From Candidatus Poribacteria bacterium (GTDB lineage Bacteria > Poribacteria > WGA-4E > WGA-3G): 64,000 nt of DNA. The stretch spans positions 548,632-612,631 of the forward strand of contig CBDFHD010000002.1 in the NCBI GenBank assembly GCA_965247285.1. Reading direction: 5' to 3'. Positions 6,116-64,000 of this stretch are shown piece by piece (within the stretch, counting starts at the first letter, position 1; the number at the start of each line of letters is the position of its first letter). The translations under genes and the position numbers were made by a program. The notes beneath the pieces were generated by a model that was not told where the DNA came from, ran no database searches, and was given only the letters and a program-made list of their open reading frames with translations.

Positions 6116-6138
6116 ACTTGAAAACTGGCGGGTGGTAA

Positions 6139-8242: not shown

Positions 8243-8265
8243 TTGAGAAATGCGTGGTACTGCGT

Positions 8266-9276
8266 TCAACGCCTTGCGACAAATTCAGGTTGTGCGACTT
8301 GCATACGGATCGGCGGTAACCCTGCCGCGATGGCTTCAACGTCATCTGTAACCATTCTCCCGATGTCGAAAAGGGCGTGATCGATGGCACCCGCCATGTG
8401 GCAGGTGAGTATCGTATTTTCCGTCTCTCGGACCGGATGATCGGGCGGCGGTGGTTCTTCAGGATAGACATCAATCGTCGCTCGAAATCTGCCGGCATTT
8501 GTCAATTCAAGAAGTGCGTCGAAATCAACAAGATGCGAACGGCTTGCTAAAACAAGTACTGCCCCTTGTTTAATCTGGTTCAGTTTCTCGTAAGTAAGCA
8601 GCTCCCTATTCTCCAGTGTTGGAATCGCTAAAACGAAGGTGACATCGCACGTTTGCAGCAGTTCCTCCAGTCCCATCGGATTTACCCCCTGTTGTTCTAA
8701 ATGTGTGTCAGGGAGCCATGGATCGTAGACGTGGAGTTTACATTTGAAAGGTGCTAACAGCAGTCGCAGTTCCCGTGCGAGGTTTCCATAGCCGATGATA
8801 CCCACCGTTGCATTATAGAGCGTGCAAATGTCGGCTTGTCCATGCCATCCCCATTTCTCTTCACCACGACGCATTCGCCGATCCGCATCGACGATATTCC
8901 GTAGGGAAGCCAGAGCATGTCCCAACGCCATCTCAGCCACCATTTTGGCGAAAGCAGGTGCACAACTCAGCACACGAATACTCCGTCTGAAGCAGGTCTG
9001 GTAATCAACTTGTTCTTTTCTGGGGTGCGCACCGCCTACCTCCATAATAGTCTTCAGATGCGGTGCGGCATTTTCGTCAACGTCGCCGACCCCGTAGCTG
9101 GGAATACCTATCAGAATGGATGCCTCTTTTTTGACTTCGTTCCACGCATCTTCGGGCATCTGCTCGTCCTTACCCCATATTACTTCAACGGTATTCCCGA
9201 GGCGTTGCAAATCTTCTTGTGTGAAAATAGTGTCGAGTTGCCGTACCGGACGCGTATGCAAAATCGCTTTTAACAT
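8266..9276 (-). CDS. D-isomer-specific 2-hydroxyacid dehydrogenase family (NAD-binding)
   Basis: GIIGYGNLARELRLLLAPFKCKLHVYDPW Rossmann motif; catalytic-domain pattern of D-2-hydroxyacid dehydrogenases. Confidence 0.75.
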   Translation of the reverse strand: MLKAILHTRPVRQLDTIFTQEDLQRLGNTVEVIWGKDEQMPEDAWNEVKKEASILIGIPSYGVGDVDENAAPHLKTIMEVGGAHPRKEQVDYQTCFRRSIRVLSCAPAFAKMVAEMALGHALASLRNIVDADRRMRRGEEKWGWHGQADICTLYNATVGIIGYGNLARELRLLLAPFKCKLHVYDPWLPDTHLEQQGVNPMGLEELLQTCDVTFVLAIPTLENRELLTYEKLNQIKQGAVLVLASRSHLVDFDALLELTNAGRFRATIDVYPEEPPPPDHPVRETENTILTCHMAGAIDHALFDIGRMVTDDVEAIAAGLPPIRMQVAQPEFVARR

Positions 9277-9365
9277 TGTTGATCCTTCATTACTCTGTAT
9301 CGGTTTTCAGAAAAATCTCCCCGTCAAAATCTGAAACCTGATGGTGCAGCTGATGCTTACCACTT

Positions 9366-10148
9366 CTATCGCGCAAGATTTGACTTCAGTTTTCCCCATG
9401 TTGTCGTCAACTTGTCCTGAGATTTGACTGCCAGTACCCCTTCGATGCCTTTGTTCATTAATTCCTGAATCTCTTGCTCAGAGCGTGCGATGTTGGAGAT
9501 TCGGACTTCGTCCATCTGTCCTTGTAGAAATGGTCCGGCACCGCGTCCGAGCCACAAGACATCGTTGTTGGGGACGATATTGCCGCCAATTTTGCCTTCG
9601 CCGTCTATAACACCGTTGATATAAATCTTGCCTTCACCTGACTTCCCGTCGTAAGTACCGGCAACGTGCATCCACTTTTTCAGGGGCATTTCTGTTTTAC
9701 CGTGAACGACTGCAGCCCCCCATGCTTGCTTATCCGTAGTCAACCGGACGAGCACCTTCTTGTTATCTCGAGGTCCCACTTTGTAGCTTAACTCTTTCGT
9801 GGCACCTGTCCCGCCAGCGGTTGACCATGCCTCAAGGTAGAGCCACATTTCGACGGTGAGACCCTCAACCAGATCTAAGCTGTCGCTGTCAGGGATTTCT
9901 ACAAAATCCCTCGGACCATTTCCTTCAAAGACAAGCCCGCCACCGGGATTTCCCTCTCCCCGCTTCGGACCCATGAGTTCACCATCGTTTCCGTTACCAG
10001 AGAGGTCCTTGACGGCTTTCCCCGCTCCTGACTCAAAGGTGTAAAGAAGGACGGTGTGTTCATCCTGTGCAAAACTGGGTAGACTTCCGACGGATATTAA
10101 CAAAAAAACTAACATTAACCAACACAAGATATTTATAGCGTTCTGCAT
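9366..10148 (-). CDS. secreted LamG-like jellyroll (Laminin_G_3 / concanavalin A-like) protein
   Basis: Signal peptide; LLYTFESGAGKAVKDLSGNGNDGEL...GLVFEGNG..DFVEIPDS..L is the Laminin_G_3 signature; C-terminus ends ...LAVKSQDKLTTTWGKLKSNLAR. Confidence 0.8.
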   Translation of the reverse strand: MQNAINILCWLMLVFLLISVGSLPSFAQDEHTVLLYTFESGAGKAVKDLSGNGNDGELMGPKRGEGNPGGGLVFEGNGPRDFVEIPDSDSLDLVEGLTVEMWLYLEAWSTAGGTGATKELSYKVGPRDNKKVLVRLTTDKQAWGAAVVHGKTEMPLKKWMHVAGTYDGKSGEGKIYINGVIDGEGKIGGNIVPNNDVLWLGRGAGPFLQGQMDEVRISNIARSEQEIQELMNKGIEGVLAVKSQDKLTTTWGKLKSNLAR

Positions 10149-10450
10149 GATAAAATTTTTCCTCCTTAAGTGTCATTGACATTTTAGCATAGATCGATCC
10201 GACCCACAATCCAAAAATGGGCATACCGTTTTTTCTGAACAAATTTGATGCCGATTTGCCTAATCTAACAAGGGGAGATGGACCAAAAATTTCCAGATGA
10301 AATAAAAAGATATTATCGTAGTTCTTATACCGAATTAACAGAATTGTTTTTGCGTTATCTCTTTTCAGCGTTATACTGGAGTCATGAAAAACACAAAATA
10401 GCGAGTTTCGCCTCATTTTTTCATGGAGACGCTCAAAATTAGGATTTGAC

Positions 10451-12502
10451 ATGCAGTACACATCACAGCAAAATGATTGGTTGGTTCAGCCCTTTTGTCA
10501 ACCTGCTTCAGTAACAGAAACGGACAATCGGCTTATTCTCGGTAATGGTCTCATCCAGCGTACATTCGTCGCTTCACCTAATTTCGCAACGGTCAATTAT
10601 ACCAATCAAATTACGGGTAGTAGTTTTCTCCGTGGCATCAAACCAGAGGCGGTGCTTACGATTGACGGACACCAATTTGAGGTGGGTGGCTTGAAAGGAC
10701 AGCCCGACTACGCCTATCTTGATTCGGATTGGATTGTGGACTTGACGAGTGACCGGAACGCATTTCAATTTCGCGAATATCGAGTCGATGAAACTGAAAT
10801 CCCCTATCCGTGGGTACGCAGGCGTTCTGCTACATCATCAGTATATCCTCCAGAGGGTGTGACACTGACGATTGCGTTCTCACCGCCGCCATCTGTTGAT
10901 TCCCTTCAGGTTTGTGTGCATTATGAACTATACCAAGGCATTCCAGTCCTATCCAAGTGGATCACTATCCGCAATGAGGGGCAAAAACCGATTCAACTTG
11001 ATGCCTTAAGTTGTGAAATCCTTGCGGTCAACGAGCAGGAGAAGCATAGGCTACATGTCGAGAGCAATTATGCCTTCAGTGGAGTGGAAACGACGCAATG
11101 GGGTCCAGATGCGGATTACAAGACGCAAGTCGATTATCACTATCAGATGCCACTGTTGATGACAAGTTGTTATCCACTCGGTCCGGGAATACTTCTTCAA
11201 CCCGGAGAGACTTTCAAGAGTTTTCGCACCTTTGAGATTCTGCATGATAGTGATGCGCGTGAGCGAAAAGGACTCGCACGCCGCAAGATGTATCGCACGG
11301 TCGCGCCACAGGTCACGGAGAATCCAATTCTAATGCACGTTCGGAGTGCTGAGCCGGACCCAGTTCGTTTAGCGATTGATCAATGTGCCGAAGTCGGATT
11401 TGAAATGGTGATTATGACCTTTGGGAGTGGATTCAATATCGAGAGCGAAGACACGGAATACATCGCTACAATGAAGGAATTGACCGATTATGCACACGGG
11501 AAAGGTATTCAACTCGGTGGTTATACGCTGATGTGTGCTTCGCGGAATGTGGGTGAAGACTTCAACTGTATTGACCCAGACACCGGGCAACCCGGAAGTA
11601 AGTTTGGGCAGAGTGCTTGTCTTGCGAGCAGATGGGCAGACGGCTACTTCCAGCGAGTGCTGAATTTCATGGATGCAACCGGAATGGATGTCATAGAGAC
11701 GGATGGTCCTTATCATGGTGACGTCTGTGCGGCAACGACGCACGAATACCATAACGGCTTGGCGGATTCGCAGTTGCGTCAGTGGGAAGCATGCGTTTCT
11801 TTTTACCACGAATGCCGAGCACGCGGTATCTATATCAATTCGCCAGATCGGTATTACCTCAACGGTTCAAACAAATGCGGTATGGGCTATCGCGAAACGA
11901 ATTTCAGCTTGCCCCGCGAGCGGCAAATTCTGATTGCCCGACAGAATATCTACGATGGGACATTTGAAAAGACACCAAGTATGGGCTGGATGTTCGTCCC
12001 GTTGGTAGAGTACCACGGCGGCGGAGAAGCCGCAACGTTTGAGCCGCTTTGCGAACACCTTGATGACTACGAATCACATCTTGCACAAAACTTTGGCAGT
12101 GGTGTGATTGCGTGCTATCGCGGTCCCCGGCTTTTTGATACTGAAGAGACGAAAGCGGTCGTTAAGAAATGGGTTGACTTCTACAAAAAGTATCGCCCAA
12201 TATTGGATTCTGACCTGATTCACGTGCGCCGCCCAGATGGCCGTTCCATTGATTGTGTGCTCCACGCCAACACGCAAATCAGTCCCTGTGGATTAGCAAT
12301 GCTCTATAATCCTACGCGTAGGGTGCAACAGATGACTTTGAAATTACCGCTCTATTATACTGGATTGTCTGAAATTGCCAAAATTCGTGAAGAAGAAGGA
12401 GAACCCAAACGGCACACAATTGACCGGGATTACAACGTTGAGATTCCAATTAAGATGGAAGCAAAGAGCGTTAGCTATCTCGTTATTGACCCTGAAATTT
12501 GA
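10451..12502 (+). CDS. hypothetical protein, possibly a TIM-barrel carbohydrate-active enzyme (no confident family)
   Basis: 683-aa ORF with good coding character and no recognisable catalytic motif. Divergently transcribed from the upstream LamG gene. Confidence 0.3.
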   Translation: MQYTSQQNDWLVQPFCQPASVTETDNRLILGNGLIQRTFVASPNFATVNYTNQITGSSFLRGIKPEAVLTIDGHQFEVGGLKGQPDYAYLDSDWIVDLTSDRNAFQFREYRVDETEIPYPWVRRRSATSSVYPPEGVTLTIAFSPPPSVDSLQVCVHYELYQGIPVLSKWITIRNEGQKPIQLDALSCEILAVNEQEKHRLHVESNYAFSGVETTQWGPDADYKTQVDYHYQMPLLMTSCYPLGPGILLQPGETFKSFRTFEILHDSDARERKGLARRKMYRTVAPQVTENPILMHVRSAEPDPVRLAIDQCAEVGFEMVIMTFGSGFNIESEDTEYIATMKELTDYAHGKGIQLGGYTLMCASRNVGEDFNCIDPDTGQPGSKFGQSACLASRWADGYFQRVLNFMDATGMDVIETDGPYHGDVCAATTHEYHNGLADSQLRQWEACVSFYHECRARGIYINSPDRYYLNGSNKCGMGYRETNFSLPRERQILIARQNIYDGTFEKTPSMGWMFVPLVEYHGGGEAATFEPLCEHLDDYESHLAQNFGSGVIACYRGPRLFDTEETKAVVKKWVDFYKKYRPILDSDLIHVRRPDGRSIDCVLHANTQISPCGLAMLYNPTRRVQQMTLKLPLYYTGLSEIAKIREEEGEPKRHTIDRDYNVEIPIKMEAKSVSYLVIDPEI

Positions 12503-13369: not shown

Positions 13370-13439
13370 GGGTGTGAGTTTCGTTATGAGCCAACTCCTT
13401 GACTGCTCCTGTTCCACCAACAGTTGAAGTGATTTTTAT

Positions 13440-13560
13440 AGGACTTACGCACGTTGCTCTTTTGTAGCATAACCTGTTAGGTTGTGCCAAGAAACCGTCT
13501 GCGTTTTTTATACGGTCTCTCTTTCAGGGCGCGGGCGATGCTCAAAATTGCGTAAGTCCT
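13440..13560. mobile_element. MITE-like element, 121 bp, perfect 12-bp terminal inverted repeats AGGACTTACGCA / TGCGTAAGTCCT (family A)
   Basis: Read from sequence; about 97 percent identical to the 57343..57463 copy; intergenic. Confidence 0.7.
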
Positions 13561-52759: not shown

Positions 52760-53590
52760 CTAAGTCTGTTCTTTTAAACGCTCAAGCTCCTCTCGGAGTT
52801 GTGCGATCTCCATTTCCGCTTTCTGGCGTGCCGAGGCTTCCTGTTCAGCGCGTGTTTCAGCCGTTTGTGCGCGTGTGGCTTCCTGTTCAGCGCGTGTTTC
52901 AGCCGTTTGTGCGCGTGTGGCTTCCTGTTCAGCGCGTGTTTCAGCCGTTTCAGCTCGTGCTAATGCTAACTCCGCGTATGCTAATGCTGACTCCGCCGGC
53001 GTTTGCAGCCAATTATCCCCAACCGGATCGTAAATACCTAAACCCACATCACCAACATAGAAATCTAAACCGAGAGCAGTGGAGTGCAGACCCCCATTTG
53101 GACCTGCCGAAATCGGGACATACGAACCATCAACCAAGGTAAAACCCATTATAGGCGACGGTAAATATAGACCCTCCGCATCATACAAGAAATAGTCTTG
53201 GATCCCCAATAAAGCGTAGAGTTCCATCTTGTGACCTAAGTCGTTGCGATAGGTGCTTTTGCTGGAAAACTCCATCACAAAATCAGGTACCTTTCCCTCC
53301 TCCCAGACGAGATACGTCCGTCGGAGTTTCTTACCTAAGCCAAAAGCGACCAGAACATCCGGCGAAACCGATTTACGCGGGTCTCCTTCCACGTAATACA
53401 TGAGTATATCACCAGAGATATAGACCCCTGGATTTTCTTCAAAATGGGTGTCAAGGACTTGTAAAGTCCGCATGAGGATACGCCTGTGAAGGTCGCTGAC
53501 GGCCATGGGTTTTCCATCCTCTTCGGGGTAAAGTTCCGCGTCCTCTGTAGGGGCGTAGGGGATATGATTCCTGTTTCTGTAGGTGTCCAT
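52760..53590 (-). CDS. Uma2-family (DUF820) putative restriction-endonuclease-like protein with repetitive C-terminal tail
   Basis: Start moved to ATG 53590 (SD GGAGGG; MDTYRNRNHIPYAPTEDAELYPEEDGKPMAVSDLHRR...). C-terminus is (AETRAEQEATRAQT)n, then coiled-coil. Confidence 0.6.
   Translation of the reverse strand: MDTYRNRNHIPYAPTEDAELYPEEDGKPMAVSDLHRRILMRTLQVLDTHFEENPGVYISGDILMYYVEGDPRKSVSPDVLVAFGLGKKLRRTYLVWEEGKVPDFVMEFSSKSTYRNDLGHKMELYALLGIQDYFLYDAEGLYLPSPIMGFTLVDGSYVPISAGPNGGLHSTALGLDFYVGDVGLGIYDPVGDNWLQTPAESALAYAELALARAETAETRAEQEATRAQTAETRAEQEATRAQTAETRAEQEASARQKAEMEIAQLREELERLKEQT
52836..52961. repeat. perfect tandem repeat, 42 bp x 3 (third copy diverges at its end), inside the Uma2 C-terminal coding region
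   Basis: GGCTTCCTGTTCAGCGCGTGTTTCAGCCGTTTGTGCGCGTGT repeated; read from sequence. Confidence 0.85.
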
Positions 53591-53660
53591 CAGTGTCCCT
53601 CCCATTTCGTGAGATACCTGAATACACGAGCATTTTGTTCTATATAACCTTACGAAAAGA

Positions 53661-54833
53661 TTATGCCGGCGGCGCATACCTCGCATCGATCCACGCGCGT
53701 TGTTTACCGCTGTCGACAGCCGCATTGATGAAATGTACCCCGCGAGCCCCATCTTGAACGGTTGGAAAATCTGTGTCGAATTCAGTCGGGGTTTCGCCTG
53801 ATATTTTTGCGGCTATTGTCCGCCCTGCGTTTACATAAACATTTGCGAATGCCTCAATGAACGCTTCAGGGTGTCCGAAGGGTATCCGCGAATTGTGTTG
53901 GACGACCTCCGACAGATAATCGTTCCCACGTTTGTAAACATGTTCGGGACCATCTGGAAAACGGACATAGAGGTAGTTCGGATTTTCTTGTTGCCATTCC
54001 AGCGACGCGTCAGTGCCGTAGACACGGATACGCAAATTGTTCTCTTCACCTACCGAGATTTGTGACGCATAAAGTACCCCGCGGACTCCGTTTTCATAGT
54101 GCACGAGTAGGTTTCCATCGTCTTCTAACAAGCGTCCCTCTACAAAAGTGGTCATATCCGCACAGATTTCTTCGATGTCGAGTCCTGTGATATAGTGTGC
54201 CAAATTCTCGGCGTGGGAACCGATGTCCCCGATACACGAGGAGGCACCCGCTTGATTCGGATCGGTACGCCAGACGGCTTGTTTCGCGCCTTCGTTCTCT
54301 AAAAATGTGGCGAGCCAGCCTTGAGGGTATTCTACGACGATTTTGCGAAGTTTTCCGAGTTTTCCGTCTTTCACGAGTTCGCGTGCCTGCTTCACCATCG
54401 GATAGCCTGTGTAGTTGTGTGTGAGCGCAAAAACGACATCGTGTTCTTTGACGAGGCTGCATAGCGTTTCAGCATCGGCGACTGTCGTTGTCATCGGTTT
54501 ATCACAGACGACATGAAACCCGGCTTCAATAAAGGTTTTGGCGACATCGAAATGGATATGGTTCGGTGTCACAATTGAGACGAAGTCAATGCGTTCGCCA
54601 TCGGGTAGCTGACGCTCTTTCTCTGCCATTTCTTGGTAAGACCCGTAGACTCGATTTGCATCGAGGAAGAGTTCAGCACCTTGTTGTCGGGATTTTTCGG
54701 GTGATGATGAAAACGCACCCGCAACGAGTTCAATTTCTCCGTCAAGTGCTGCGGCTTTACGATGGACGGCACCGATAAACGCGTCCGGTCCACCACCTAC
54801 CATGCCGTAACGTATTTTCCTGTTCAGTGGCAT
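53661..54833 (-). CDS. Gfo/Idh/MocA family oxidoreductase
   Basis: IRYGMVGGGPDAFIGAVH Rossmann motif; CDKPM motif. Confidence 0.85.
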   Translation of the reverse strand: MPLNRKIRYGMVGGGPDAFIGAVHRKAAALDGEIELVAGAFSSSPEKSRQQGAELFLDANRVYGSYQEMAEKERQLPDGERIDFVSIVTPNHIHFDVAKTFIEAGFHVVCDKPMTTTVADAETLCSLVKEHDVVFALTHNYTGYPMVKQARELVKDGKLGKLRKIVVEYPQGWLATFLENEGAKQAVWRTDPNQAGASSCIGDIGSHAENLAHYITGLDIEEICADMTTFVEGRLLEDDGNLLVHYENGVRGVLYASQISVGEENNLRIRVYGTDASLEWQQENPNYLYVRFPDGPEHVYKRGNDYLSEVVQHNSRIPFGHPEAFIEAFANVYVNAGRTIAAKISGETPTEFDTDFPTVQDGARGVHFINAAVDSGKQRAWIDARYAPPA

Positions 54834-55427
54834 CTTACGTGTTTTCTCCTTTACTGTGTAATAAATATGGGCTTGTAAGCTTCGCCCTATAAGGATATTT
54901 TGATTCCAAAATACATTATCTCATATTTGAGTGTTTTTTTCAAGATTTTTGTTCAGAAGCATTCAGTTATCAGCACTCAATAAGGTCGCAATAACGGAGC
55001 AGAAGCATTCAGTTCTTCTGTAGGAGGGAACTCCGATTCCCGACAGACTCCAGTAAAGGATAAGAAAATGCTGTGAGCTTCAGAGGATTCAGAGTAAAAT
55101 CTGAAAAGTGGTGGGTTCAAAAAAAGTTGTGAATATAGACAATGACTGGGTTTCGAGTGGTTTTGATAGGAGATTTCTGAAACGCTTACTCTGAAACTTC
55201 AGTTCTTATGGATAACAGATGGGAAAAAAATAATTTTCTGTAAAGTGTAACATTTTTTCAGATGTTCTGAAAGCCTCGCGTTTCTTGTGGTGTATCGTGG
55301 TGTTAACAGTGGTCTGAAAGCACTACAAATATTATACTATATTTATCAATAGTTTTTCAAGATAAAAGTCAGAGCCATTAACATCAGGTAATCCGTGAAG
55401 GGGACGTTTTTTGTTTCACTGCCATAT

Positions 55428-56225
55428 CTAAGAGGGAGTTAGCATTGCGGCTATGTCTTCCGGTAGTTTAATCTCATGTTTCTGCTCAAAGTCGGCAACG
55501 TTTTCATAGTCTTTGCGAAACTGTTCAGTGATGATATTTTCCTGCTTGTCTCTGGCAGTCGTAAGATCTTCTTTGGATTTTTCCCATTCTTGCAAGCGTA
55601 CAAACATCATACCGCGATTGTAGTATGGCTCTGCTAAATCGGGTTTGCGTTCTATCGCCACGTTATAGTCTTTGATGGCACGTTCATACTCGCCTTTTTT
55701 ACTGTAGACATTACCACGATTGTTGTAGGGATGGACAAGGTCAGGTCTCAGTTCTATTGCTTTGGTATAATCTATGATTGCGAGATCATACTCTTCTCTT
55801 TCATAGTAAACAATACCACGGTTGTAATAGGCGTAAGCAAAACTGGGATCAAGTTCTATTGCTGTGTTATAGTCTTTAATAGCAGGCTCTATCTCACCTT
55901 TGAGTTTATAAACTATCCCGCGATTGTTATAGGCTTCTGGCAAATTTGGGTCAAGTCTTATCGCTGTGTTACAATCTTCAAATGCGCGATCATAGTCCTT
56001 TTTCATGCGGTAAGCTGCGCCGCGATTGCTGTATGCCTCGGCATAGTTTTCCTTGCGCCTAATAGCTGTGTTGAAGTCTTCAATAGCGCGGTCAATTTCA
56101 CCTTTATTACCATAAGCGATGCCACGATAGTTATAGGGTGTGGCAAAACTTGGTCTTTCTATAATTAGTTTGGTAAAACGTTGGATGGTGCTATCGTTAG
56201 GATCCTGTACAACTTCGGGCTTCAT
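55428..56225 (-). CDS. TPR-repeat protein (cytoplasmic)
   Basis: Seven or eight canonical 34-aa TPR units (AYxNRGxxYxxKGEYDRAIxDYNxAIxLxP). Confidence 0.85.
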   Translation of the reverse strand: MKPEVVQDPNDSTIQRFTKLIIERPSFATPYNYRGIAYGNKGEIDRAIEDFNTAIRRKENYAEAYSNRGAAYRMKKDYDRAFEDCNTAIRLDPNLPEAYNNRGIVYKLKGEIEPAIKDYNTAIELDPSFAYAYYNRGIVYYEREEYDLAIIDYTKAIELRPDLVHPYNNRGNVYSKKGEYERAIKDYNVAIERKPDLAEPYYNRGMMFVRLQEWEKSKEDLTTARDKQENIITEQFRKDYENVADFEQKHEIKLPEDIAAMLTPS

Positions 56226-56259
56226 GTTTATGTCTCCGTTATGTTTGGTATTGAGTGTA

Positions 56260-56943
56260 TCAAGTCTTCAAAGTATCTTCAATCAACTCCATTTCGGCTT
56301 GATAAATTCCTATAGAGGTTTTCTGGTGGCTGCTCTGGTCTCTAATGAACCCGTGGAGATCGTTGTAGACGGTCTGTGTTGAGATACCGTGCTGTTTTTG
56401 CAGATGATCTAATATCGGTTCTTTGAGCGATTTAGGAATGTCAATGACATCATACTGTCCTGATTCGAGAAAACCTTTGGGAGGTCGAACAAATATGCTT
56501 TTCTGTGTTATGACACGGTTTCTTGGATTCTGTGGTTCCCTAATTTTGTAATCTTCATTTGTCTTTTCAGTTCTTTGAAATAAAATTATCCTGCCGGGTT
56601 TGTCAAGGAAGCCGTCGCATGCGAAGAAAAGGGCTATGTGGTTATCGGTTGTAAAGTCTATTAGATTGGTATGGCCGCCGTAGTGTTGAAGTTCCGTCAA
56701 GATTTCAAAGGGATCTGTTTCGTGGGTATAGTCTTTCGCTGCTTCGAGCATTCGCTCTTGGATGGCTTCTATACCAAACTCCTCTGTCCCAATTTCTTCC
56801 CGGCATTCACGCCACAGGCTTGAAGATACCTTCTCATAATGTTGAGGTTCGCCGCGATAGATGAAGTCACCATCGGCGGTCATTTCTGCTATCCTACCGA
56901 TTATCTCCAAAATCCTGTTCAGTTCGGTTTCTTGTGTGTTCAA
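56260..56943 (-). CDS. FRG-domain protein
   Basis: FIYRGEPQHYEKVSSSLWR ... LQHYGGHTNLIDFTTDNHIALFFA matches the FRG signature (FRGq...L.PS..R ... AQHYG.PT.LLDwT.sp.vAl.FA). Confidence 0.65.
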   Translation of the reverse strand: MNTQETELNRILEIIGRIAEMTADGDFIYRGEPQHYEKVSSSLWRECREEIGTEEFGIEAIQERMLEAAKDYTHETDPFEILTELQHYGGHTNLIDFTTDNHIALFFACDGFLDKPGRIILFQRTEKTNEDYKIREPQNPRNRVITQKSIFVRPPKGFLESGQYDVIDIPKSLKEPILDHLQKQHGISTQTVYNDLHGFIRDQSSHQKTSIGIYQAEMELIEDTLKT

Positions 56944-57036
56944 ACGCTGTTCTCCACGATATGGATTCTTTCCGATATTAAATCATACAAGAAATAGACA
57001 ATCAGCATCGCGTCTAATCCGCGCGGCGCGAATTGA

Positions 57037-57264
57037 TCAGAAGATAAGGTCATCACCGCTTACCTCGGACAAGTCTAATACCGAAGGGTTTTCTGTTTTA
57101 AGTTTCTCAGCATAAATATCGTCCCATGTCTGTTGAGTGTAGGGACGGATTAATATGCCATTGTCTACCCTTTCGATCACGACACACGATTCTAACCCTA
57201 ATTCCTTCACCCAGTCGAGGGGCAATTTGATTTTATGATCAGTCTCTAATGAAAGTGTTTTCAT
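57037..57264 (-). CDS. AbrB/MazE/SpoVT-type swapped-hairpin DNA-binding protein (antitoxin-like)
   Basis: KIKLPLDWVKELGLESCVVIERVDNGILIRP; 75 aa. Confidence 0.45.
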   Translation of the reverse strand: MKTLSLETDHKIKLPLDWVKELGLESCVVIERVDNGILIRPYTQQTWDDIYAEKLKTENPSVLDLSEVSGDDLIF

Positions 57265-57342
57265 AATATCTACCTCTTCCTATAAGCAGTTAGAGAAAGT
57301 ATATCACGACTTGCGGTGAATTCTCAATTGTTTTAGTAGAAT

Positions 57343-57463
57343 AGGACTTACGCACGTTGCTCTTTTGTAGCATAACCTGTTAGGTTGTGTCAAGAAACCG
57401 TCTGCGTTTTTTACACGATCTCTCTTTCAAGGCGCGGGCGATGCTCAAAATTGCGTAAGTCCT
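57343..57463. mobile_element. MITE-like element family A, second copy (perfect 12-bp TIRs AGGACTTACGCA / TGCGTAAGTCCT)
   Basis: About 97 percent identical to 13440..13560. Confidence 0.7.
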
Positions 57464-57487
57464 ATAGAAAATTTCTAATTGACGAAT

Positions 57488-57610
57488 TAGAGATTCGGTG
57501 TTTTTTGTCTGAATCGCAGATTTACGCGGATTGGCTCGGATGACGCGGATTATTGTCTGAATCGCGGATTGTCGCGGATGACGCAGATTTCGCGGATTGA
57601 AGAGGTTATT
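57488..57610. repeat. two GTCTGAATCGC-anchored arrays of degenerate tandem nonamers (CGCGGATTA / ACGCGGATG-like)
   Basis: gtctgaatcgcagatttacgcggattggctcggatgacgcggattatt and gtctgaatcgcggattgtcgcggatgacgcagatttcgcggatt read from sequence. Confidence 0.7.
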
Positions 57611-58030
57611 CTATCGCCGCCATCCACCTGTGGATCCGTGATTGGGTTGTGTGAGAATCAATCTTTTTATTTCTAAGCTTTTCGACCCGAAATTGAGTAA
57701 TAAGCCTATTTCTAAGCGATACGCCTTCAGGTAGTTTAATATCTGTGCCTCATGCACATCTTCCAGGGCAGAGATTGCTTTTAATTCCACCAACACTTCT
57801 CCTGCTACTACAAAATCTGCTCTGCGAGTACCGATTGGCTCTTGGAAATCTTTATAAAAAATATCCTGTTCAATTTCGCGAGCGAATTCCAGCCCTGCTT
57901 TTCTCATTTCTATAGCCAACGCTCGCTGATAAATTACCTCTTGAAAACTGTTACCCATAAACTTATGTACCTCAAATGCAGCTCCAATAATCTTTTGCGT
58001 TATATTCTGATGTTTCAGGTTATTGTTCAT
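57611..58030 (-). CDS. GxxExxY protein (PD-(D/E)XK-like nuclease superfamily)
   Basis: IIGAAFEVHKFMGNSFQEVIYQRALAIEMRKAGL...GTRRADFVV..EVLVELKA matches the GxxExxY family pattern. Confidence 0.7.
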   Translation of the reverse strand: MNNNLKHQNITQKIIGAAFEVHKFMGNSFQEVIYQRALAIEMRKAGLEFAREIEQDIFYKDFQEPIGTRRADFVVAGEVLVELKAISALEDVHEAQILNYLKAYRLEIGLLLNFGSKSLEIKRLILTQPNHGSTGGWRR

Positions 58031-58057
58031 TTATTTGGGGTATCCTTTTATATGTCT

Positions 58058-58362
58058 GAATCGCGGATTACATGGATTACACGGATTGCGCGGATTATTG
58101 ACTTGGCATATCTGAACCTCGCTTTCACAAAAACACATGTCTGAATCAGGGGTGACATGGATTTCTCGGATTTTTTATCCTTGCCCATTCCAAATTTACT
58201 TTCACAAAAGACGTTTGAATCGCATAACACTTAATGAAGAAAAGTCTATACTTTTTTCACCAAGATTGCCTAAAGCGTATTTTACTACAGAGCGGACACG
58301 GATAACGAAAACACAAAAATCCGTGTAATCCGCGCAATCCGCGTAATCCGCGATTCAGACAA
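58058..58362. repeat. GTCTGAATC-anchored GGATTAC(A/G)(C/T) nonamer arrays plus an approximately 80-bp tandem duplicated unit, closed by an inverted copy (58316..58362)
   Basis: gtctgaatcgcggattacatggattacacggattgcgcggattatt ...; second unit gtctgaatcagggg...ctttcacaaaagacg; inverted copy aaatccgtgtaatccgcgcaatccgcgtaatccgcgattcagacaa. Confidence 0.7.
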
Positions 58363-58376
58363 TTTATTCCACCGCA

Positions 58377-58480
58377 CCCTCCACAATCGCAATCTCATCG
58401 GGGGTTAAATCGTATAAGGTGTATACCAGATGGTCAATCTCATTTTCGAGATTGGAAATGTCTACATAGGATTGCCTGTT
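58377..58480 (-). pseudogene. remnant 3' end of a TaqI_C-type methyltransferase gene (encodes ...SYVDISNLENEIDHLVYTLYDLTPDEIAIVEGAVE then stop)
   Basis: Manual minus-strand translation. About 85 percent nt identity to the 3' end and downstream repeat of the 62320..62782 gene (direct repeat 58321..58460 versus 62272..62420). Confidence 0.6.
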
Positions 58481-58516
58481 AGGATAAGCGTTAGGTTTGT
58501 GTATTCGGGGTTTGTT

Positions 58517-58630
58517 GTCAGAATCGCGGATTACCGCGGATTACACGGATTACGCAGATTTTAAGAGTGCCTCTGCTCGTAGTAGCGCGATTCATCGCGG
58601 CTCTTTCTGAATCTCGGATTACGCGGGTTG
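58517..58630. repeat. further GTCAGAATCGCGGATTACCGCGGATTACACGGATTACGCAGATT nonamer array, plus CTGAATCTCGGATTACGCGGG
   Basis: Read from sequence. Confidence 0.7.
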
Positions 58631-58706
58631 GAAATCTGCCATCAGTAATATGTAACCTCTGATATTCCGGTACCAGCGGCGCGAAGTAATTAACTTTCTC
58701 GTCATA

Positions 58707-59663
58707 TCACACTAAACATTTCTCGAACGCTTTGATAAACGAAATTTTGCCTTCACACATTTGTTTCCGAATTCTCAATATTTCCCATGCAGTAGGCAGT
58801 CCCTTCACCACGATTTCTGCGTCGATTTGTAAGCGTAGAAATAATTGATTTAGCTCTTTGATAATATACTCGCGTAGACATGCCTGTGCCCACTTTAATG
58901 TTATGCTTCTATACATACCATAAAATTCATTCCAGTTTTCAGAGTTATAATCTCGTTGGCTCCAGCCCCACCGCTCTGTTGCCCTTGCTATGAAAAGTTT
59001 CGTTTCTTGAGCATAGTGTTTAGTATTAAAGTTTGTGGGCCACTCCTGCACACTTACTGTGTATTTTAAAAAAGATGGAACGAGATCCGGAAACCGTACG
59101 AGTTTCTTGAGCATTGCACGATGCCCCCGGTACCCGCCTAACTTTTCCGGCATTACGATATCCCAGATATCCGTTTCTGTGATACTATCATAGGGTTTGT
59201 CGTGGGGATGACGGTGTGTTTGCGGAAGTATTCGGGTATACCTTCCAAATACCCGCAACAACCACTGATAAGCGAATGCATGCAATCTATATACTCCATT
59301 GTTTTCTTTATCCCAGAAAATCTTGCGGACTGACCGACCTTCCCATACGAGTTCCAAAACAATTGCTTCTACGGCATCACTTAACAATTTCTTCAAGGGC
59401 TGCCGACTATACCGGTTGTACTCATACCTACGAACAAGTGACTCCAAAATTGCTACTACACGAGGTTCATCACTATCTTTACCTTGTATCTCTACAGAAA
59501 AGTTGGGAGCGTGATCTGACTCACCTCCGATCGGCATTATCCCAAGCCGAGCATCTTCTAGGAACATAGATAGATTCAAATTGTGATTGACTTCTTCCCT
59601 AAGTTTGGAAAAGGACTTAGCAACACGCGGTGTTTTCAAACGTTTGTGGGATTTAGGTTTCAT
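58707..59663 (-). CDS. hypothetical protein (318 aa), second gene of the two-gene cassette; no recognisable domain
   Basis: ATG 59663 overlaps the TGA of the upstream 866-aa gene (ATGA), indicating translational coupling. Basic N-terminus MKPKSHKRLKTPRVAKS. Confidence 0.5.
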   Translation of the reverse strand: MKPKSHKRLKTPRVAKSFSKLREEVNHNLNLSMFLEDARLGIMPIGGESDHAPNFSVEIQGKDSDEPRVVAILESLVRRYEYNRYSRQPLKKLLSDAVEAIVLELVWEGRSVRKIFWDKENNGVYRLHAFAYQWLLRVFGRYTRILPQTHRHPHDKPYDSITETDIWDIVMPEKLGGYRGHRAMLKKLVRFPDLVPSFLKYTVSVQEWPTNFNTKHYAQETKLFIARATERWGWSQRDYNSENWNEFYGMYRSITLKWAQACLREYIIKELNQLFLRLQIDAEIVVKGLPTAWEILRIRKQMCEGKISFIKAFEKCLV

Positions 59664-62260
59664 GATCCTTGATGCCTTGTATTATGGTTTTCTTCTCTTC
59701 TAATATCTTCTTCGAGGTCTCTACGATTCCGCTTCCAACCGAAATCAAGATTTTCTCCGACTTCCTGTTGGCGAACGTACTTGGCGATAAAAATGTCAAT
59801 TCCATCATAGGGCATGTAGGGGAAAGGCTGGGATCGTCCAGCGAAAATTCTCACCAAGGCACTTTCGTGTACCGGAACTGTGTCGGGCTCAGGGTCAACA
59901 ATGATACGATTTGGATCGGGCGGGATTTCTTGGCGTTCCACATTCGCCAGAAGTCGTTGTATCATTTGCTTCCATCTGGTCCTATTTATACCACGGTGTT
60001 CAATCTCGAAACCAGATTCGGAGAGCGAGGTAGCTGCTGCAAGAGATTGAAGACGTTGATTTTCTTGTTCTTCGTTGAGGTATTTATCCCATGCTTTCAC
60101 TATGGGTTCCTTCAGGCGTGGTGTTTCGTGATAGTCAGAAAGCAGATACGCGTAGCCACTAATATCCATCAGATCCAAAAGAGGTGCAGCAGCGATTTTT
60201 AAATTATTCAGATTCTGCCAATCAGTTCCCAATTCTTCAGAACGCAGTTTGTCAAACTGTAATAGACTGCCGCCGAAGTAATGACCGAAAATTGTTTCGA
60301 TCAACTCGCAATCATTCTCAACCATAGCGACAAATAACGCTTCTCCAACAGTGTGAAGGAATTGTCCGGCAAAATCTGGATAAGATTCAGGTCTTGATAT
60401 CAAGGAGAGTAGGAGATTTTCTTCGGACATGAGTTTCAAAAGTTCCTTATGTCGCTGCCTGCATTTTTCCACCAGTTCCTCAATATCTAAACTTGGCCAA
60501 GGAATTCCTTCGATCCGCCGGTCAGAATTTAAATCACTCCAAAAATCGTTCAAGGTATCCATGTGGTGATCAAGCTTATTCCAGTACTCTAACTCTCCTG
60601 ATACAATCACTGTCTCCAACCATGGATGTCGTGAGGATTTCGCAATTTCTATCCAATGTTTGTAGAGTTCACATGCCTTTTCACAAAAACTGATTAGTGC
60701 TTTGTGAAGATTCTCCACTTCTTTTTGCACAGTTAGTTCTTGAAGATACCAGGATGCGCTGATGACGTGCCCTTCAACTCTATCCTCAAAAGCTAGTTTT
60801 GGGCGCAGCCATTCAAGTCGTTCCAAGACATGTACTGCGAAACCTGTTCTGTAAATTGACCTTTCTGATTTCCATTTGATGTGATGAATTCGTTGGAGTA
60901 TTGCATCTCGTCTATGAGACTTAATAGTGCTAATGTAGGCCAAAAAAACATTAATTGGCATTGCTGCTAACTGTGTACAAATTTGCATATGTTCCAAGGG
61001 TTCTTCTGTAACAAGGTTATCCTTTTCAGCAAAGATGAATTTTTCACACCATGAAAAAATGTCACTTATCAGGTTGAATGCATATTCAATTTGGTGATCT
61101 GCTGCAAGTAGTCGAACATAAATGTCAAGACGATTTAGCAATTCAATGACTATCGGATAGCGTTTCTCTTCCATATTGATTTCCAAACAACGCCCCACAA
61201 TTGGCAATATTGCAGATTCAATCCATCTGAGGTCGCTTACGGTTTCCGGCTGTAGTCCAGTGGCCGTTTCGTATGCCAAAGATGTCTTTGTATCACTCGT
61301 TCTATACCAATCCGGGTGCACATATTTTTGCCGGTACCACAAACTACCGGTGGGAATTGATTTTTTTATTCTTTCATAATCACATAAAAATACAAGGAGA
61401 TTTTTGCACAGATCTGCGAATGGACGACCATTGAGATACGGTTCTTCGGCCGCTATGTCGGACACAGCGGTTAGGGTATTTATAGTATTTTGGGCGCGCT
61501 GACGGGTATAATTTTGGAACGAAGGATCTAACCAACGATACCCACCCGCCTGCACTTGTCGGTGGTACTGGAATAACTGTTTGAAGAGACGATGTGAGAG
61601 AATTGTGGGATCGAAGAAATAAAAGGCACGAGCACCTAATCGGACAAATCCAATAATCATAACCCCTGCACCTAGTATAAGGAGTGGTATTGCTAATATG
61701 ATCGGTTCAAAACCTGCGGTGTGAAAAGCAAGTAAACACACACCGAAAGAGGTAAGCAAGGCAAGCAAGCGCATGTACACGTTGCCAACTTGTTCTTTGG
61801 CTAGTAAGTCCCGGATGTCATTGGGTAGTCTCGCGTAGATAGCACCACCTATTGTGCTGATGGCAGCATAGTAAAGACCGATGAATATTCCGCCTACCGC
61901 GATCACTGTTTCAAGCAAGGTCCCGTAAGTGCTATCCTCAGGAATAGTGAAGCCTATCTTTGTGAACAAAGGAACACAATAAGGATTAATGCCTTGGAGT
62001 CCGATAGTTATGAAGATCGCCAAGATTAGTTGGCCTAATATAGACCACAATAGAGAAAATAGAGATTTCGTTACTGTACCGCCTTCTCGCACACGGTGTT
62101 TTATTCCGAACAGCGTTCTGTAGGAGAAGAATCCGAGACGCGAAAAAGCGTTTCTGGCCTTCCAGAAGATTCGAGTTTGAGCAAAAGAAAGAAATAGAGT
62201 GTTAAACATCGTTAGTCGTTCATAGAGGCTTCCGAATTGCAGATAAGTCCGAAATGACAC
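59660..62260 (-). CDS. hypothetical large membrane protein (866 aa): N-terminal four or five transmembrane helices plus about 600-aa soluble alpha-helical domain; first gene of the two-gene cassette
   Basis: TM segments LFSLLWSILGQLILAIFITIGL, VIAVGGIFIGLYYAAISTIGGAIYA, LLALLTSFGVCLLAFHTAGF, IILAIPLLILGAGVMIIGFV. No P-loop or nuclease motif seen. Annotated start is GTG at 62260 with no SD; an alternative ATG at 62209 (MFNTLFLSF...) is possible. Confidence 0.5.
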   Translation of the reverse strand: MSFRTYLQFGSLYERLTMFNTLFLSFAQTRIFWKARNAFSRLGFFSYRTLFGIKHRVREGGTVTKSLFSLLWSILGQLILAIFITIGLQGINPYCVPLFTKIGFTIPEDSTYGTLLETVIAVGGIFIGLYYAAISTIGGAIYARLPNDIRDLLAKEQVGNVYMRLLALLTSFGVCLLAFHTAGFEPIILAIPLLILGAGVMIIGFVRLGARAFYFFDPTILSHRLFKQLFQYHRQVQAGGYRWLDPSFQNYTRQRAQNTINTLTAVSDIAAEEPYLNGRPFADLCKNLLVFLCDYERIKKSIPTGSLWYRQKYVHPDWYRTSDTKTSLAYETATGLQPETVSDLRWIESAILPIVGRCLEINMEEKRYPIVIELLNRLDIYVRLLAADHQIEYAFNLISDIFSWCEKFIFAEKDNLVTEEPLEHMQICTQLAAMPINVFLAYISTIKSHRRDAILQRIHHIKWKSERSIYRTGFAVHVLERLEWLRPKLAFEDRVEGHVISASWYLQELTVQKEVENLHKALISFCEKACELYKHWIEIAKSSRHPWLETVIVSGELEYWNKLDHHMDTLNDFWSDLNSDRRIEGIPWPSLDIEELVEKCRQRHKELLKLMSEENLLLSLISRPESYPDFAGQFLHTVGEALFVAMVENDCELIETIFGHYFGGSLLQFDKLRSEELGTDWQNLNNLKIAAAPLLDLMDISGYAYLLSDYHETPRLKEPIVKAWDKYLNEEQENQRLQSLAAATSLSESGFEIEHRGINRTRWKQMIQRLLANVERQEIPPDPNRIIVDPEPDTVPVHESALVRIFAGRSQPFPYMPYDGIDIFIAKYVRQQEVGENLDFGWKRNRRDLEEDIRREENHNTRHQGS

Positions 62261-62271
62261 AGAATCTTAAA

Positions 62272-62315
62272 AATCCGCGTTAATCTGTGTAATCCGCGTA
62301 AATCCGCGATTCAGA
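62272..62315. repeat. inverted GGATTAC-nonamer array / GATTCAGAC anchor downstream of the methyltransferase 3' end (part of direct repeat B)
   Basis: aatccgcgttaatctgtgtaatccgcgtaaatccgcgattcagacaa read from sequence. Confidence 0.7.
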
Positions 62316-62319
62316 CAAT

Positions 62320-62782
62320 TTATTCCACCGCACCCTCCAGAATCGCAATCTCATCGACAGTTAAGTCGTATAAAACGTATACCAATTTATCAATCTCATT
62401 TTCAAGGGTAGAAACGTCCGCGTCTAAGTCAGCGCGTTTGACGTTGAGAATCTGATCGACTAAAGTTGCAACCGAAGTCTGCTCTCCAACTGAACGTGAA
62501 ATTAAGGGTATTGCTAATAAAGGTTGCTTGTCAATTTGATAATTTGTCCCTTGCATTTTTCCCCTATGTTTCAACCAAAAAGTGACAAGCCTTGAATTCA
62601 AGAGCCCCGTCAAGTATTTTAGATTGATTCTTTTCGTCTTAATTAGAAAAAAAGTTTGCGATACATAGCTATCAAAATCAACATAGGTAAATATAGGTCT
62701 TGCCCATTTTCTGACCGATATAATCTTCTCTCCTTGAAAAATAGACTGTTTTCTTGATCTATGCAATCCATAAGGTTTATTA
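62320..62782 (-). CDS. C-terminal TaqI_C-type target-recognition domain of a type IIG restriction-modification / BREX PglX-like N6-adenine methyltransferase (3' piece of a gene disrupted by an IS)
   Basis: KPYGLHRSRKQSIFQGEKIISVRKWARP ... LKYLTGLLNSRLVTFWLKHRG ... LVYVLYDLTVDEIAILEGAVE are TaqI_C hallmarks. After removing the IS and one TA, the reading frame is continuous with the 63826..64000 piece. Confidence 0.6.
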
Positions 62783-63823
62783 GACATTATAACGATTAAA
62801 TTGCAAGTTGTCATTAGTCTATGTTAGAATCTTAAAAAGTATTATTTTTGAGGTAGACCCATGACAAGTTATCAAGACCTAAAGGATAAACCGAAACGAT
62901 TCCATTCTTTGACAGGATACACGCCCGAAGAATTTTCTGCGATCGCTCCCACCTTTTCTAAGTGTTTTTTAGAGTTTGTCGAAACAAACACACTGGATGG
63001 AGAACGCCGAAAAAAACGGAAGTATTGCTCGTATAAAAATAGTTTCTTACCCAGTATTGAGGATAAGCTGCTGTTTATTTTCATTTACCTGCGAAAGGCA
63101 GTGACACAAGATGTGCTCGGTGAACTCTTCGGTGTGTCTCAACCTGTAGCGAATAAATGGATCCACCGACTTTTGCCCATCGTCAATCGTGCTTTGGCAG
63201 CCCTTGGGGAGTTACCATCTCGAGAGCCAGACCCCTCAACTTTTGATACGCCTGGGGATACTTCGTCTGACAATCAAGTTTCAAATCATTTTTTTTCAGG
63301 ATAGCACTGAGCGTCCGATACAACGTCCCAAAGACCCACAAAGACAAAAGGCTTATTATAGTGGTAAAAAGAAACAACATACCCACAAGAATAACTTGGT
63401 CATTGATGCTGCGTGCAAAGTTGTGTTATTGACACCCACTTGTGAAGGCAGAATACATGACAAGCGTATCGCTGATGCCACTCGTTATTGTCTGCCAAAT
63501 GGTAGTACTTTGTTTCAAGATTCGGGTTTTCAAGGATTTAGCCTTCAAGGAATAAACATCATTCAACCGAAAAAGAAACCCAAAGGACGAGACCTCACGC
63601 TTGAAGAAAAAGAGAGGAATCGTCTTATTTCATCCATCCGTGTCCGAGTCGAACATGTGATGAGTGGTATCAAAAGATACCGCATCGTAAAAGATAAGCT
63701 GCGCAACTGGAAAAAAGGGTTTAGTGATTTAGTTATGGAAACATGTTGTGGGTTACACAACTTTAGATTAAACTTCCGACCTTGGTGTTATAAGACGACT
63801 ATTGATTAAACCATTATAATGTC
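62783..63823 (+). mobile_element. IS5-family (DDE_Tnp_4-type) insertion sequence, about 1041 bp, imperfect 20-bp terminal inverted repeats, TA target-site duplication
   Basis: IRL GACATTATAACGATTAAATT (62783..62802) versus IRR reverse complement GACATTATAATGGTTTAATC (63804..63823). Flanking TA at 62781..62782 and 63824..63825. Confidence 0.7.
62861..63809 (+). CDS. IS5-family transposase, two overlapping frames (orfA 62861..63304, orfB 63189..63809), probably joined by a -1 frameshift at a T8 run
   Basis: orfA has a HTH-like N-terminus. orfB has a DDE_Tnp_4-like core (VIDAACKV.., DSGFQG, RVRVEHVMSGIKRYRIV). T8 tract at about 63283..63290, where the frames overlap. Confidence 0.7.
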
Positions 63824-63825
63824 TA

Positions 63826-64000
63826 TTACTAGAAGTGATTACATCTTGGAACTTATCAAGATGTTTTTTTATATTAGGATAATCTTCTATCTTTTTCTTA
63901 TCTTTTTTAAAGCTGGAATCAGTGTAGATTACCCATTTACGGTTTATAGGGTTAGCATAATGACGATTCAATTCTTGGGTTGTATAACAAGGATTTATGA
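63826..64000 (-). CDS. upstream (more N-terminal) piece of the IS-disrupted TaqI_C-domain methyltransferase gene; continues beyond the right window edge
   Basis: Encodes ...NRHYANPINRKWVIYTDSSFKKDKKKIEDYPNIKKHLDKFQDVITSSN, then enters the IS. Frame-continuous with 62320..62782 after IS excision. Confidence 0.5.

Follow-up and report, generated by a model that had tools for sequence, protein, structure and literature searches.

The stretch of DNA analysed here, referred to as the window, comprises 64,000 nucleotides of contig CBDFHD010000002.1 (assembly GCA_965247285.1) from a Candidatus Poribacteria bacterium, a probable sponge symbiont. Its right end is a low-GC block (Table 1) that holds an FRG-domain gene, a GxxExxY gene, part of a type IIG restriction-modification (RM) methyltransferase (MTase) gene split by an insertion sequence (IS), a miniature inverted-repeat transposable element (MITE), several copies of a repeat confined to the block (the island repeat), and a cassette of two genes (the pair). 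The pair encodes an 849-amino-acid (aa) protein with predicted transmembrane (TM) helices and a 318-aa protein whose predicted fold is that of tailed-phage portals. An initial annotation of the same DNA had rightly recorded a two-gene cassette and then passed over it, though it is the most interesting part of the region. We describe it as a candidate system, new and still without a name, that is widespread and whose predicted fold is unusual.

Table 1. Features of the low-GC block in the window, followed by the genes found beside the pair in related loci (handles L001, L002 and so on; L001 and L003 are the same locus). ORF, open reading frame.
Feature	Position or loci	Strand	Evidence
AT-rich intergenic gap, left edge of the low-GC block	54834..55427	.	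GC step
TPR-repeat protein, 265 aa, downstream partner of FRG	55428..56225	-	Pfam TPR_1, E value 5e-54
FRG-domain protein, 227 aa, PADLOC candidate PDC-S15	56260..56943	-	PF08867, E value 4e-13
Small ORF, 75 aa, weak SpoVT/AbrB (MazE-like) similarity, orphan	57037..57264	-	PF04014, E value 0.004
MITE, 124 bp, 14-bp terminal inverted repeats (ATAGGACTTACGCA...TGCGTAAGTCCTAT)	57341..57464	.	second copy in the window
Two tandem island-repeat copies (head TGTCTGAATCGCGGATT plus 9-nt units)	57505..57600	+	
GxxExxY / PD-(D/E)XK_3 protein, 139 aa	57611..58030	-	TIGR04256, E value 1e-37; PF13366, E value 4e-36
309-bp element with 48-nt inverted arms of the head-plus-nonamer repeat	58053..58361	.	arms 85% complementary
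Relic of a second type IIG MTase gene, its last ~32 codons (...VDISNLENEIDHLVYTLYDLTPDEIAIVEGAVE, then stop)	58367..58462	-	translation
Two island-repeat copies immediately beyond the 3' end of the pair, in opposite orientation to the copy on its upstream side	58516..58638	+	
318-aa protein, second cassette gene, predicted phage-portal fold	58707..59663	-	
849-aa protein, first cassette gene, four predicted N-terminal TM helices and a predicted cytoplasmic all-alpha solenoid	59660..62209	-	
Island repeat in the interval separating the MTase stop codon from the pair	62269..62317	-	
Type IIG RM gene, 3' part (TaqI_C specificity domain)	62320..62779	-	PF12950; PADLOC REase_MTase_IIG
IS5-family insertion sequence, 1046 bp	62780..63825	+	HTH_Tnp_4, DDE_Tnp_4, inverted ends
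Same type IIG gene, upstream part, running off the end of the window	63826..64000	-	PADLOC REase_MTase_IIG, profile positions 1037-1085
Type I RM, pair between or beside hsdM, hsdS and hsdR	L004, L010, L011, L012, L013, L015		
Type ISP enzyme directly upstream of the pair	L008		
Pair between the HmaA helicase and the HmaB methylase	L009		
Eco57I-type IIG MTase upstream of the pair	window, L002, L003 (same as L001), L023, L024, L025		
TIR-TPR gene downstream of the pair	L014		
Integrase upstream of the pair	L017		
Pnkp/Hen1 RNA repair genes upstream of the pair	L007		
Housekeeping-like neighbours of the pair	L005, L006, L016, L018, L019, L026		

The cassette is intact and lies directly downstream of the MTase gene on the same strand. 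The start of its large gene was set at the ATG at 62209 by comparison with homologs, the mechanical ORF running to a GTG at 62260 (866 aa), and the ATG of the 318-aa gene overlaps the stop codon of the gene upstream. Searches of Pfam, NCBIfam, PADLOC and PHROGs returned no match for either protein (PADLOC-DB v2.0.0, including Kiwa, Zorya and the PDC/HEC candidates, at E values up to 0.01); the pair thus represents two large protein families that are nameless in these four resources. A word-indexed search recovered at least 190 homologs of the large protein and at least 100 of the small one, on the same contigs, and an exhaustive profile search resolved the 318-aa family into 945 representative clusters, almost all of 260-335 aa. 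Twenty-six cassette loci were examined, namely nineteen genome loci, L001 from Poribacteria, four more metagenomic genomes and two plasmids; counted as distinct loci they number 25. The small gene is immediately downstream of the large one in 26 of 26, usually with an overlap of 1-4 nt, and clustering of the neighbouring genes reveals universal conservation of the cassette genes only. The hosts include Poribacteria, Terriglobia, Binatia, Latescibacterota, Gamma-, Alpha- and Betaproteobacteria, Nitrospira and Bacillota, a range of at least eight bacterial phyla or classes, and the cassette is also plasmid-borne. On the Burkholderia glumae plasmid NZ_CP021077 it occupies 142013-145551 and on the Paenibacillus lautus plasmid NZ_CP032413 it occupies 216907-220373, while Tardiphaga carries it within NZ_NPKQ01000002 (795-818 kb) and Mangrovimicrobium on NZ_SRLE01000001.

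Relative to L002 and L003, the ratio of nonsynonymous to synonymous substitution rates (dN/dS) is 0.16-0.18 in the gene of the 849-aa protein and 0.21-0.23 in that of the 318-aa protein. Together with the constant pairing, these values show, as far as sequence comparison goes, a self-contained unit under purifying selection. Copies of the pair broken by an IS or a frameshift were found in L004, L013, L014, L020, L023 and L025, as is common for dispensable, costly genes. Three of these loci belong to other Poribacteria genomes: the cassette of L013 is interrupted at 11020-11995 by a 72% identical relative of the IS5-family element of the window, that of L014 carries another insertion or frameshift (10834-11180), and an IS1-type element lies within the portal-fold gene of L025 (10771-11651). 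Attrition of defence genes by IS elements seems to be common in the Poribacteria lineage.

The AlphaFold2 (AF2) model of the 849-aa protein is all-alpha (predicted local distance difference test, pLDDT, 81; predicted TM-score, pTM, 0.76) and contains four long hydrophobic helices from residue ~50 to residue ~197, followed by a helical solenoid of ~650 residues. Since the N-terminus contains nine Lys or Arg residues against one Asp or Glu and leads into four TM helices, the solenoid is predicted to be cytoplasmic. The TM region is the best-conserved part of the large protein, and the motif IGLYYA, together with R194 and P201, stays unchanged in sequences of as little as 34% identity. Based on this model, the 849-aa protein appears to be an inner-membrane protein with a solenoid that has no enzyme fold.

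The fold of the 318-aa protein was assessed by an independent method, Foldseek comparison of the AF2 model (pLDDT 77; pTM 0.77), which had been built from an input alignment that holds no phage portals. All 50 matches listed are portal structures, the best of them with probability 1.00, E values of ~2e-4 and TM-scores of 0.45-0.55. We therefore predict that this protein has the tailed-phage portal fold, with its core of wing, stem and clip. The primary structure provides little trace of such a relationship: identity to the portals of HK97, SPP1, lambda (gpB), T4 (gp20) and gene-transfer agents is 7-12% with no significant match to the Phage_portal family of Pfam, the window protein has no Pfam or PHROGs portal-family match at all, and PF04860 (Phage_portal) matches one of 54 distant members faintly (E value 0.003). 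The chains of the solved portals that were matched have 256-692 residues, mostly 360-500, so that the 318-aa protein is smaller than most of them. Furthermore, unlike phage portals, it is encoded in cellular islands and plasmids that lack terminase or capsid genes, and it is always coupled to a protein with four TM helices.

Methylation-based restriction systems of four or five unrelated kinds (type I, IIG, ISP and Hma) hold or adjoin the pair in 14 of the 25 distinct loci, and the pair is nested within known multi-gene defence systems of several unrelated genomes. In L008 it directly follows the type ISP gene, and in L002, L003 and the window the IIG gene; in L023-L025 the IIG gene is within a few genes of it. 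In L023, from a Poribacteria-type genome, a CBASS (cyclic-oligonucleotide-based anti-phage signalling system) CD-NTase and Cap15, the latter a TM effector, are located between the IIG MTase and the pair (6339-7829), and genes for TIR, PIN and NTase-HEPN proteins occur downstream. Because CBASS is wedged in at this point and these other genes follow, the spot appears to accumulate different defence genes. TIR genes are near the pair in both L023 and L025. The plasmid of Burkholderia glumae carries the pair beside VapBC, between copies of IS66, while the Pnkp/Hen1 genes of L007, a metagenome-assembled Poribacteria genome, are divergent from the cassette and upstream of it (5316-9277).

A context signature of this kind has previously led to experimentally validated defence systems. 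Seven of nine cassettes taken from inside Hma systems protected against phages (Payne et al., bioRxiv 10.1101/2024.01.29.577857), and TgvAB is embedded in a type I RM operon of V. cholerae (PMC11411939), so that the embedding principle has experimental support from other cassettes (bioRxiv 10.1101/2024.01.29.577857; PMC11411939). On this principle of guilt-by-embedding, an accessory anti-phage role would be expected for the pair as well, and we consider it probable, if only modestly so, that the pair is a defence system. Like PrrC, RloC, TgvAB and the HEC/PDC cassettes found in Hma, BREX (bacteriophage exclusion), DISARM (defence island system associated with restriction-modification) and type I systems, it is a small self-contained unit nested between subunit genes in many unrelated hosts and also occurring alone, and like TgvAB and HEC-02/03, for which both genes are required, it is a two-gene unit. 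It differs in that neither of its proteins matches a model of PADLOC v2, the PDC candidates included, and in that the embedded cassettes carry nuclease, ATPase or GmrSD-type domains whereas the pair consists of a membrane solenoid and a predicted portal-fold protein; activity was shown for systems of their kind, while the pair is known from its genes. Kiwa (KwaA/KwaB) and the ZorAB core of Zorya also combine a polytopic membrane protein with a soluble partner and lack an obvious enzyme, a layout that suggests sensing or blocking at the membrane. In Pfam and PADLOC the pair matches neither KwaA/KwaB (DUF4868) nor ZorA/B, and it differs from both systems in size and architecture (849 aa with a large solenoid) and in the predicted portal fold of its partner. 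Kiwa itself, considered for the combination of a membrane protein with one of about 300 aa, was rejected for want of a KwaA, KwaB or DUF4868 match.

Two other functions might be invoked for the same context. Portals are DNA-conducting rings, and the pair, rather than defending on its own, might be an accessory module of translocating restriction enzymes, in which a membrane-anchored portal-like ring captures or threads DNA where it enters the cell and hands it to the neighbouring type I, ISP, IIG or Hma enzyme. Such a role would accord with the position of the pair, which in the 14 of 25 distinct loci directly adjoins MTase, HsdS or HsdM genes on the same strand, and with the helicase- or translocase-based nature of every partner system. 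We nevertheless consider it improbable: the pair has no RM neighbour of any sort in at least seven loci and on plasmids, its partner systems come from unrelated families, as do those of autonomous embedded cassettes, and the window combines an intact pair with a broken RM gene. The pair might instead be a conserved membrane complex outside defence, for example in envelope or stress physiology, whose proximity to RM genes reflects the general clustering of accessory genes. The loci with housekeeping-like neighbours (Table 1) and the lack of a nuclease, NTPase or other typical defence domain speak for this. There is only a slight chance that it is correct, given that nesting among hsdM, hsdS and hsdR or between hmaA and hmaB, in eight loci, goes beyond mere proximity, that the distribution is patchy across phyla, on plasmids and in islands, and that frequent inactivation by IS elements or frameshifts is expected of a costly, dispensable gene.

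A viral origin of the cassettes themselves was also weighed. Neither protein was found by tblastn in 50,697 phage genomes, and the pair was absent from 2.9 million viral contigs of IMG/VR in pattern-seeded scans (seeded with alignments A3 and A5, the diverse alignment A4 being too variable to serve as a seed); no terminase, capsid or tail genes were seen beside the pair in the 26 loci. A functionless remnant of a prophage, gene-transfer agent or satellite, made up of a portal gene and a membrane gene, is thus very improbable, the more so as the pair is under apparent purifying selection, keeps its constant pairing from Bacillota to Poribacteria, and has a portal-fold protein smaller than most solved portals matched.

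If the pair is a defence system, its mechanism may be portal mimicry, which we offer as a doubtful but specific proposal. The portal-fold subunit would act as a decoy of the phage portal vertex and would engage proteins with which the phage packages its DNA or assembles, for example the terminase motor, scaffold or capsid, while the solenoid protein would hold the decoy at the membrane. The conserved TM domain would then either sequester the bound machinery or permeabilise the membrane, leading to aborted infection. Avs4 recognises phage portals, and its PDB entry 8dgf is among the Foldseek matches of the 318-aa model. TerI, which blocks the terminase complex, is an example of a defence acting on packaging (bioRxiv 10.1101/2025.02.27.640495). 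The process targeted by Avs4 and TerI, portal- and terminase-dependent DNA packaging, is the one proposed for the pair; those proteins bind phage components, whereas the host protein of the window would itself imitate the portal. No host-encoded portal mimic or portal-like defence protein was found in the literature searched, subscription journals lying outside it.

Several points weigh against an anti-phage decoy in a defence island. About 40% of the loci have no adjacent RM system, and housekeeping-like genes are the neighbours in the corresponding set of Table 1; the window, L002, L003, L023, L024 and L025 are mutually syntenic and do not count as independent observations. Neither protein contains a recognisable effector enzyme, and the fold matches of the large one are non-specific. 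The portal fold was predicted from a fairly shallow alignment (56 sequences, pLDDT 77, Foldseek TM-score ~0.5), and profile searches of PDB chains with both cassette families gave only noise and no portals. The content proposed beyond 64000 (see below) is taken from relatives, the defensive role of the pair would follow from genomic context only, and the decoy mechanism is purely conjectural.

The neighbouring MTase gene was recognised in the initial annotation by its TaqI_C specificity domain, which is borne out by the matches of the ORF at 62320-62814 to PF12950 (E value 1e-10) and to PADLOC REase_MTase_IIG (E value 1.5e-25; profile positions 1090-1245 of 1247). Beyond the transposase, a short ORF (63768-63971) corresponds to the preceding ~50 positions of the same profile, so the gene does not have an uninterrupted frame: an IS lies at 62780-63825, and it contributes the opening 11 codons (62780-62814) of the TaqI_C ORF as listed. 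Excision of 62780-63828, that is the 1046-bp IS plus one copy of a TTA duplication, yields a single open frame of at least 209 codons to the end of the window, which reads KFQDVITSS followed by KPYGLHRSRK across the junction and ends in AILEGAVE and a stop codon. Since removal of the IS restores one open frame, the type IIG gene was intact before the insertion, and since that frame is still preserved, the insertion is probably recent. Interrupted as it is, the resident gene has probably been inactivated by the IS and is probably non-functional.

The 209 C-terminal residues match REase_MTase_IIG profiles to their end, as in enzymes of the Eco57I/MmeI kind with TaqI_C; the window gene differs in being split, with its catalytic body outside the window. 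Full-length relatives contain the Eco57I, N6_Mtase and TaqI_C domains. The order PLD-SNF2 helicase, IIG MTase (1160-1270 aa) and pair is conserved in L001/L003, L023, L024 and L025, while L002 has the MTase and the pair with no helicase within its 10-kb flank. Four of five syntenic relatives therefore have a separate PLD-SNF2 gene before the MTase, unlike the classical single polypeptide, and by analogy with them we infer that the rest of the IIG gene and a PLD-SNF2 helicase-nuclease gene would be found just beyond 64000. DISARM was considered for this PLD-SNF2 and MTase backbone, which gives partial matches to DrmD and DrmMI, and was rejected, the syntenic loci containing no DrmA or DrmB (DUF1998). 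In its specificity region the MTase shares only 33-35% identity with L001 and L002, against 70-88% for the adjacent pair, which fits turnover of the specificity domain. The initial annotation had called the MTase type IIG/PglX-like and named BREX genes among its possible neighbours; that it is the PglX of a BREX system continuing beyond 64000 is scarcely credible, for the full-length relatives match PglX weakly (E value 9e-23) and REase_MTase_IIG far better (E values 3e-135 to 1.5e-168), and brxA/B/C, pglZ and brxL are absent from the window, which stops inside the MTase gene, and from the five syntenic loci (L001/L003, L002, L023, L024 and L025), four of which have the PLD-SNF2 helicase upstream instead.

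The inserted element was correctly assigned to the IS5 family. Its transposase includes HTH_Tnp_4 (E value 2e-12) and DDE_Tnp_4 (E value 3e-29), its ends are inverted, and a TTA target duplication flanks it (62777-62779 and 63826-63828). The transposase is encoded in two frames, orfA (62861-63304) and orfB (63189-63809), which overlap across a run of eight T at 63289-63296, and for this reason the NF033581 score (73 bits) falls under its cutoff of 140; the two frames reflect either programmed frameshifting or mutation. At the left end of the IS, an outward-facing sigma-70-like site occurs on the minus strand at 62814-62786 (ATGACA, 17 nt, TATAAT; 11 of 12 positions). As no more than a near-match to the consensus, from a scan that overall did not exceed shuffled expectation, it could drive expression of the 3' MTase fragment and the pair after the insertion.

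Among the remaining genes, the FRG-domain protein stands as first annotated. It scores 50.5 bits against PF08867 (cutoff 25) and is matched by thirteen PDC-S15 models of PADLOC, the best with an E value of 4e-22; its ortholog in L001/L003 is 80% identical and its dN/dS is 0.18. On this sequence evidence it is a candidate defence gene. The adjoining TPR gene (dN/dS 0.21) encodes a protein 83% identical to that of the FRG-adjacent TPR gene in L001. Because the orthologs are adjacent in L001/L003, and because a 652-aa paralogue there consists of FRG fused to TPR, the two genes appear to form one module. Four consecutive FRG/TPR units occur at 11094-18783 of L001, one split, one fused (652 aa) and two as adjacent genes, which suggests that the module was tandemly amplified in L001 and that the window keeps a single copy.

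The AbrB-like ORF had been listed as an AbrB/MazE antitoxin-type gene, a description that did not hold: it scores 17.5 bits against a gathering score of 24.7 for PF04014, and no toxin-family ORF is beside it, its neighbours being the FRG gene (93 nt downstream) and a repeat-filled gap. The family identity given earlier to the GxxExxY protein was confirmed by full-length matches to TIGR04256 (129 bits; cutoff 35) and PF13366 (124 bits; cutoff 22), with no defence role shown; the island repeat is present on either side of its gene. Neither the AbrB-like ORF nor the GxxExxY protein has a homolog among the 20 related loci compared.

In composition, the right end differs from the rest of the window. 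Bulk GC is 0.482 at 1-54833 and 0.412 at 54834-64000, and a 2-kb sliding profile gives 0.45-0.53 across most of the window and 0.39-0.43 at the right end. The seven island genes have a mean GC of 0.412 against 0.490 in 42 core genes (Mann-Whitney p=1e-6), and a GC at third codon positions (GC3) of 0.401 against 0.490 (p=2e-5). An AT-richer island had been reported from ~56.2 kb, to be checked by windowed GC and codon usage. The GC drop was upheld; the step is at ~54834, bordering an oxidoreductase-like gene (53661-54833), about 1.4 kb further left, and the TPR gene at 55428-56225 consequently belongs to the block. Synonymous-codon likelihood does not separate island from core genes (p=0.55), and only GC and GC3 do so. 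Taken together, the composition, the IS, the MITE, the island repeats, the type IIG gene and the FRG gene (PDC-S15) agree with the accessory block of defence-type content originally described. The window contains no tRNA that might serve as an integration site, Rfam gave no match in 54-64 kb at E values up to 0.1, and promoter and terminator scans did not rise above shuffled expectation. Outside the block, a 133-codon ORF in the core region (10060-10461) has a GC of 0.356, far below its neighbours, and may be spurious or else a small insert of foreign DNA, and a perfect 42-nt tandem repeat (2.8 copies, 100% matches) is present at 52835-52950 within core gene 52760-53752.

The island repeat has seven copies within 57506-62317, against 0.24 chance matches expected per window, and no convincing copy elsewhere in the 64 kb. 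Tandem Repeats Finder places nonamer arrays at 58064-58097, 58318-58352, 58525-58560 and 62271-62308, in keeping with the dense arrays noted before in the gaps. Inverted TGTCTGAATCGCGGATT heads ~3.7 kb apart bracket the pair in the window (62317 against 58604 and 58516), and the same bracket is found in L002 (9886 against 13679) and L003 (9900 against 13595), both of which carry the repeat at the corresponding point between MTase and pair; L014 has only the downstream copy. The bracketed pair could be a cargo unit bounded by terminal inverted repeats, and the bracket may be inherited, the window, L002 and L003 being syntenic.

Of the two MITE copies previously proposed for this region, the one at 57341-57464 is genuine. 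Its second copy (96.7% identical) is at 13438-13560, far outside the island, and the MITE is thus dispersed in the genome. The other proposed copy belongs to a 118-nt direct repeat, D1 (58345-58462 and 62301-62418; 86% identical), which was rejected as a MITE: its left copy translates to an MTase 3' end, followed by the stop codon and a repeat head, and is therefore a duplicated, coding-derived sequence. The MTase relic so identified is 81% identical to the C-terminus of the resident MTase and 69-76% identical to those of L001-L003. The pair is thus located between the 3' end of the resident MTase and that of the relic, an arrangement that is the footprint of a past rearrangement here. One copy of a 25-nt motif, GTAGGAGGGAACTCCGATTCCCGAC, resembling a repetitive extragenic palindrome (REP), is present at 55020-55044 in the left gap of the island. 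In L003, at 4906-6030 (2375-3498 of L001), 12 copies, often at a spacing of 44 nt, flank a Y1 (IS200/IS605-type) transposase gene on either side, which looks like an arrangement of REP and REP-associated tyrosine transposase (RAYT).

Overall, the region from 54.83 to 64.0 kb is best explained as a horizontally shuffled defence island in which the pair would be an anti-phage decoy system, an account of the whole that we hold to be fairly probable. The island itself is an already known kind of thing and ordinary for a sponge symbiont, restriction and defence genes being known to abound in that group (PMC5649159, PMC5099237). In the relic MTase end and in the repeats that bracket the pair, the window keeps a record of how such cassettes insert beside restriction genes. 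We tentatively suggest, as an unlikely though not negligible outcome, that the pair represents a widespread and previously unrecognised class of anti-phage system, composed of a miniature host portal decoy and a four-helix membrane protein in a cassette of ~3.7 kb within RM operons. If true, this would be, within the literature searched, the first defence with a host copy of a virion structural fold as its working part. Cultivable sources of the pair include Tardiphaga sp. P9-11, Mangrovimicrobium sediminis and plasmids of Burkholderia glumae and Paenibacillus lautus, and the question of whether a cell can defeat phages by imitating their portal vertex would then be a testable one.

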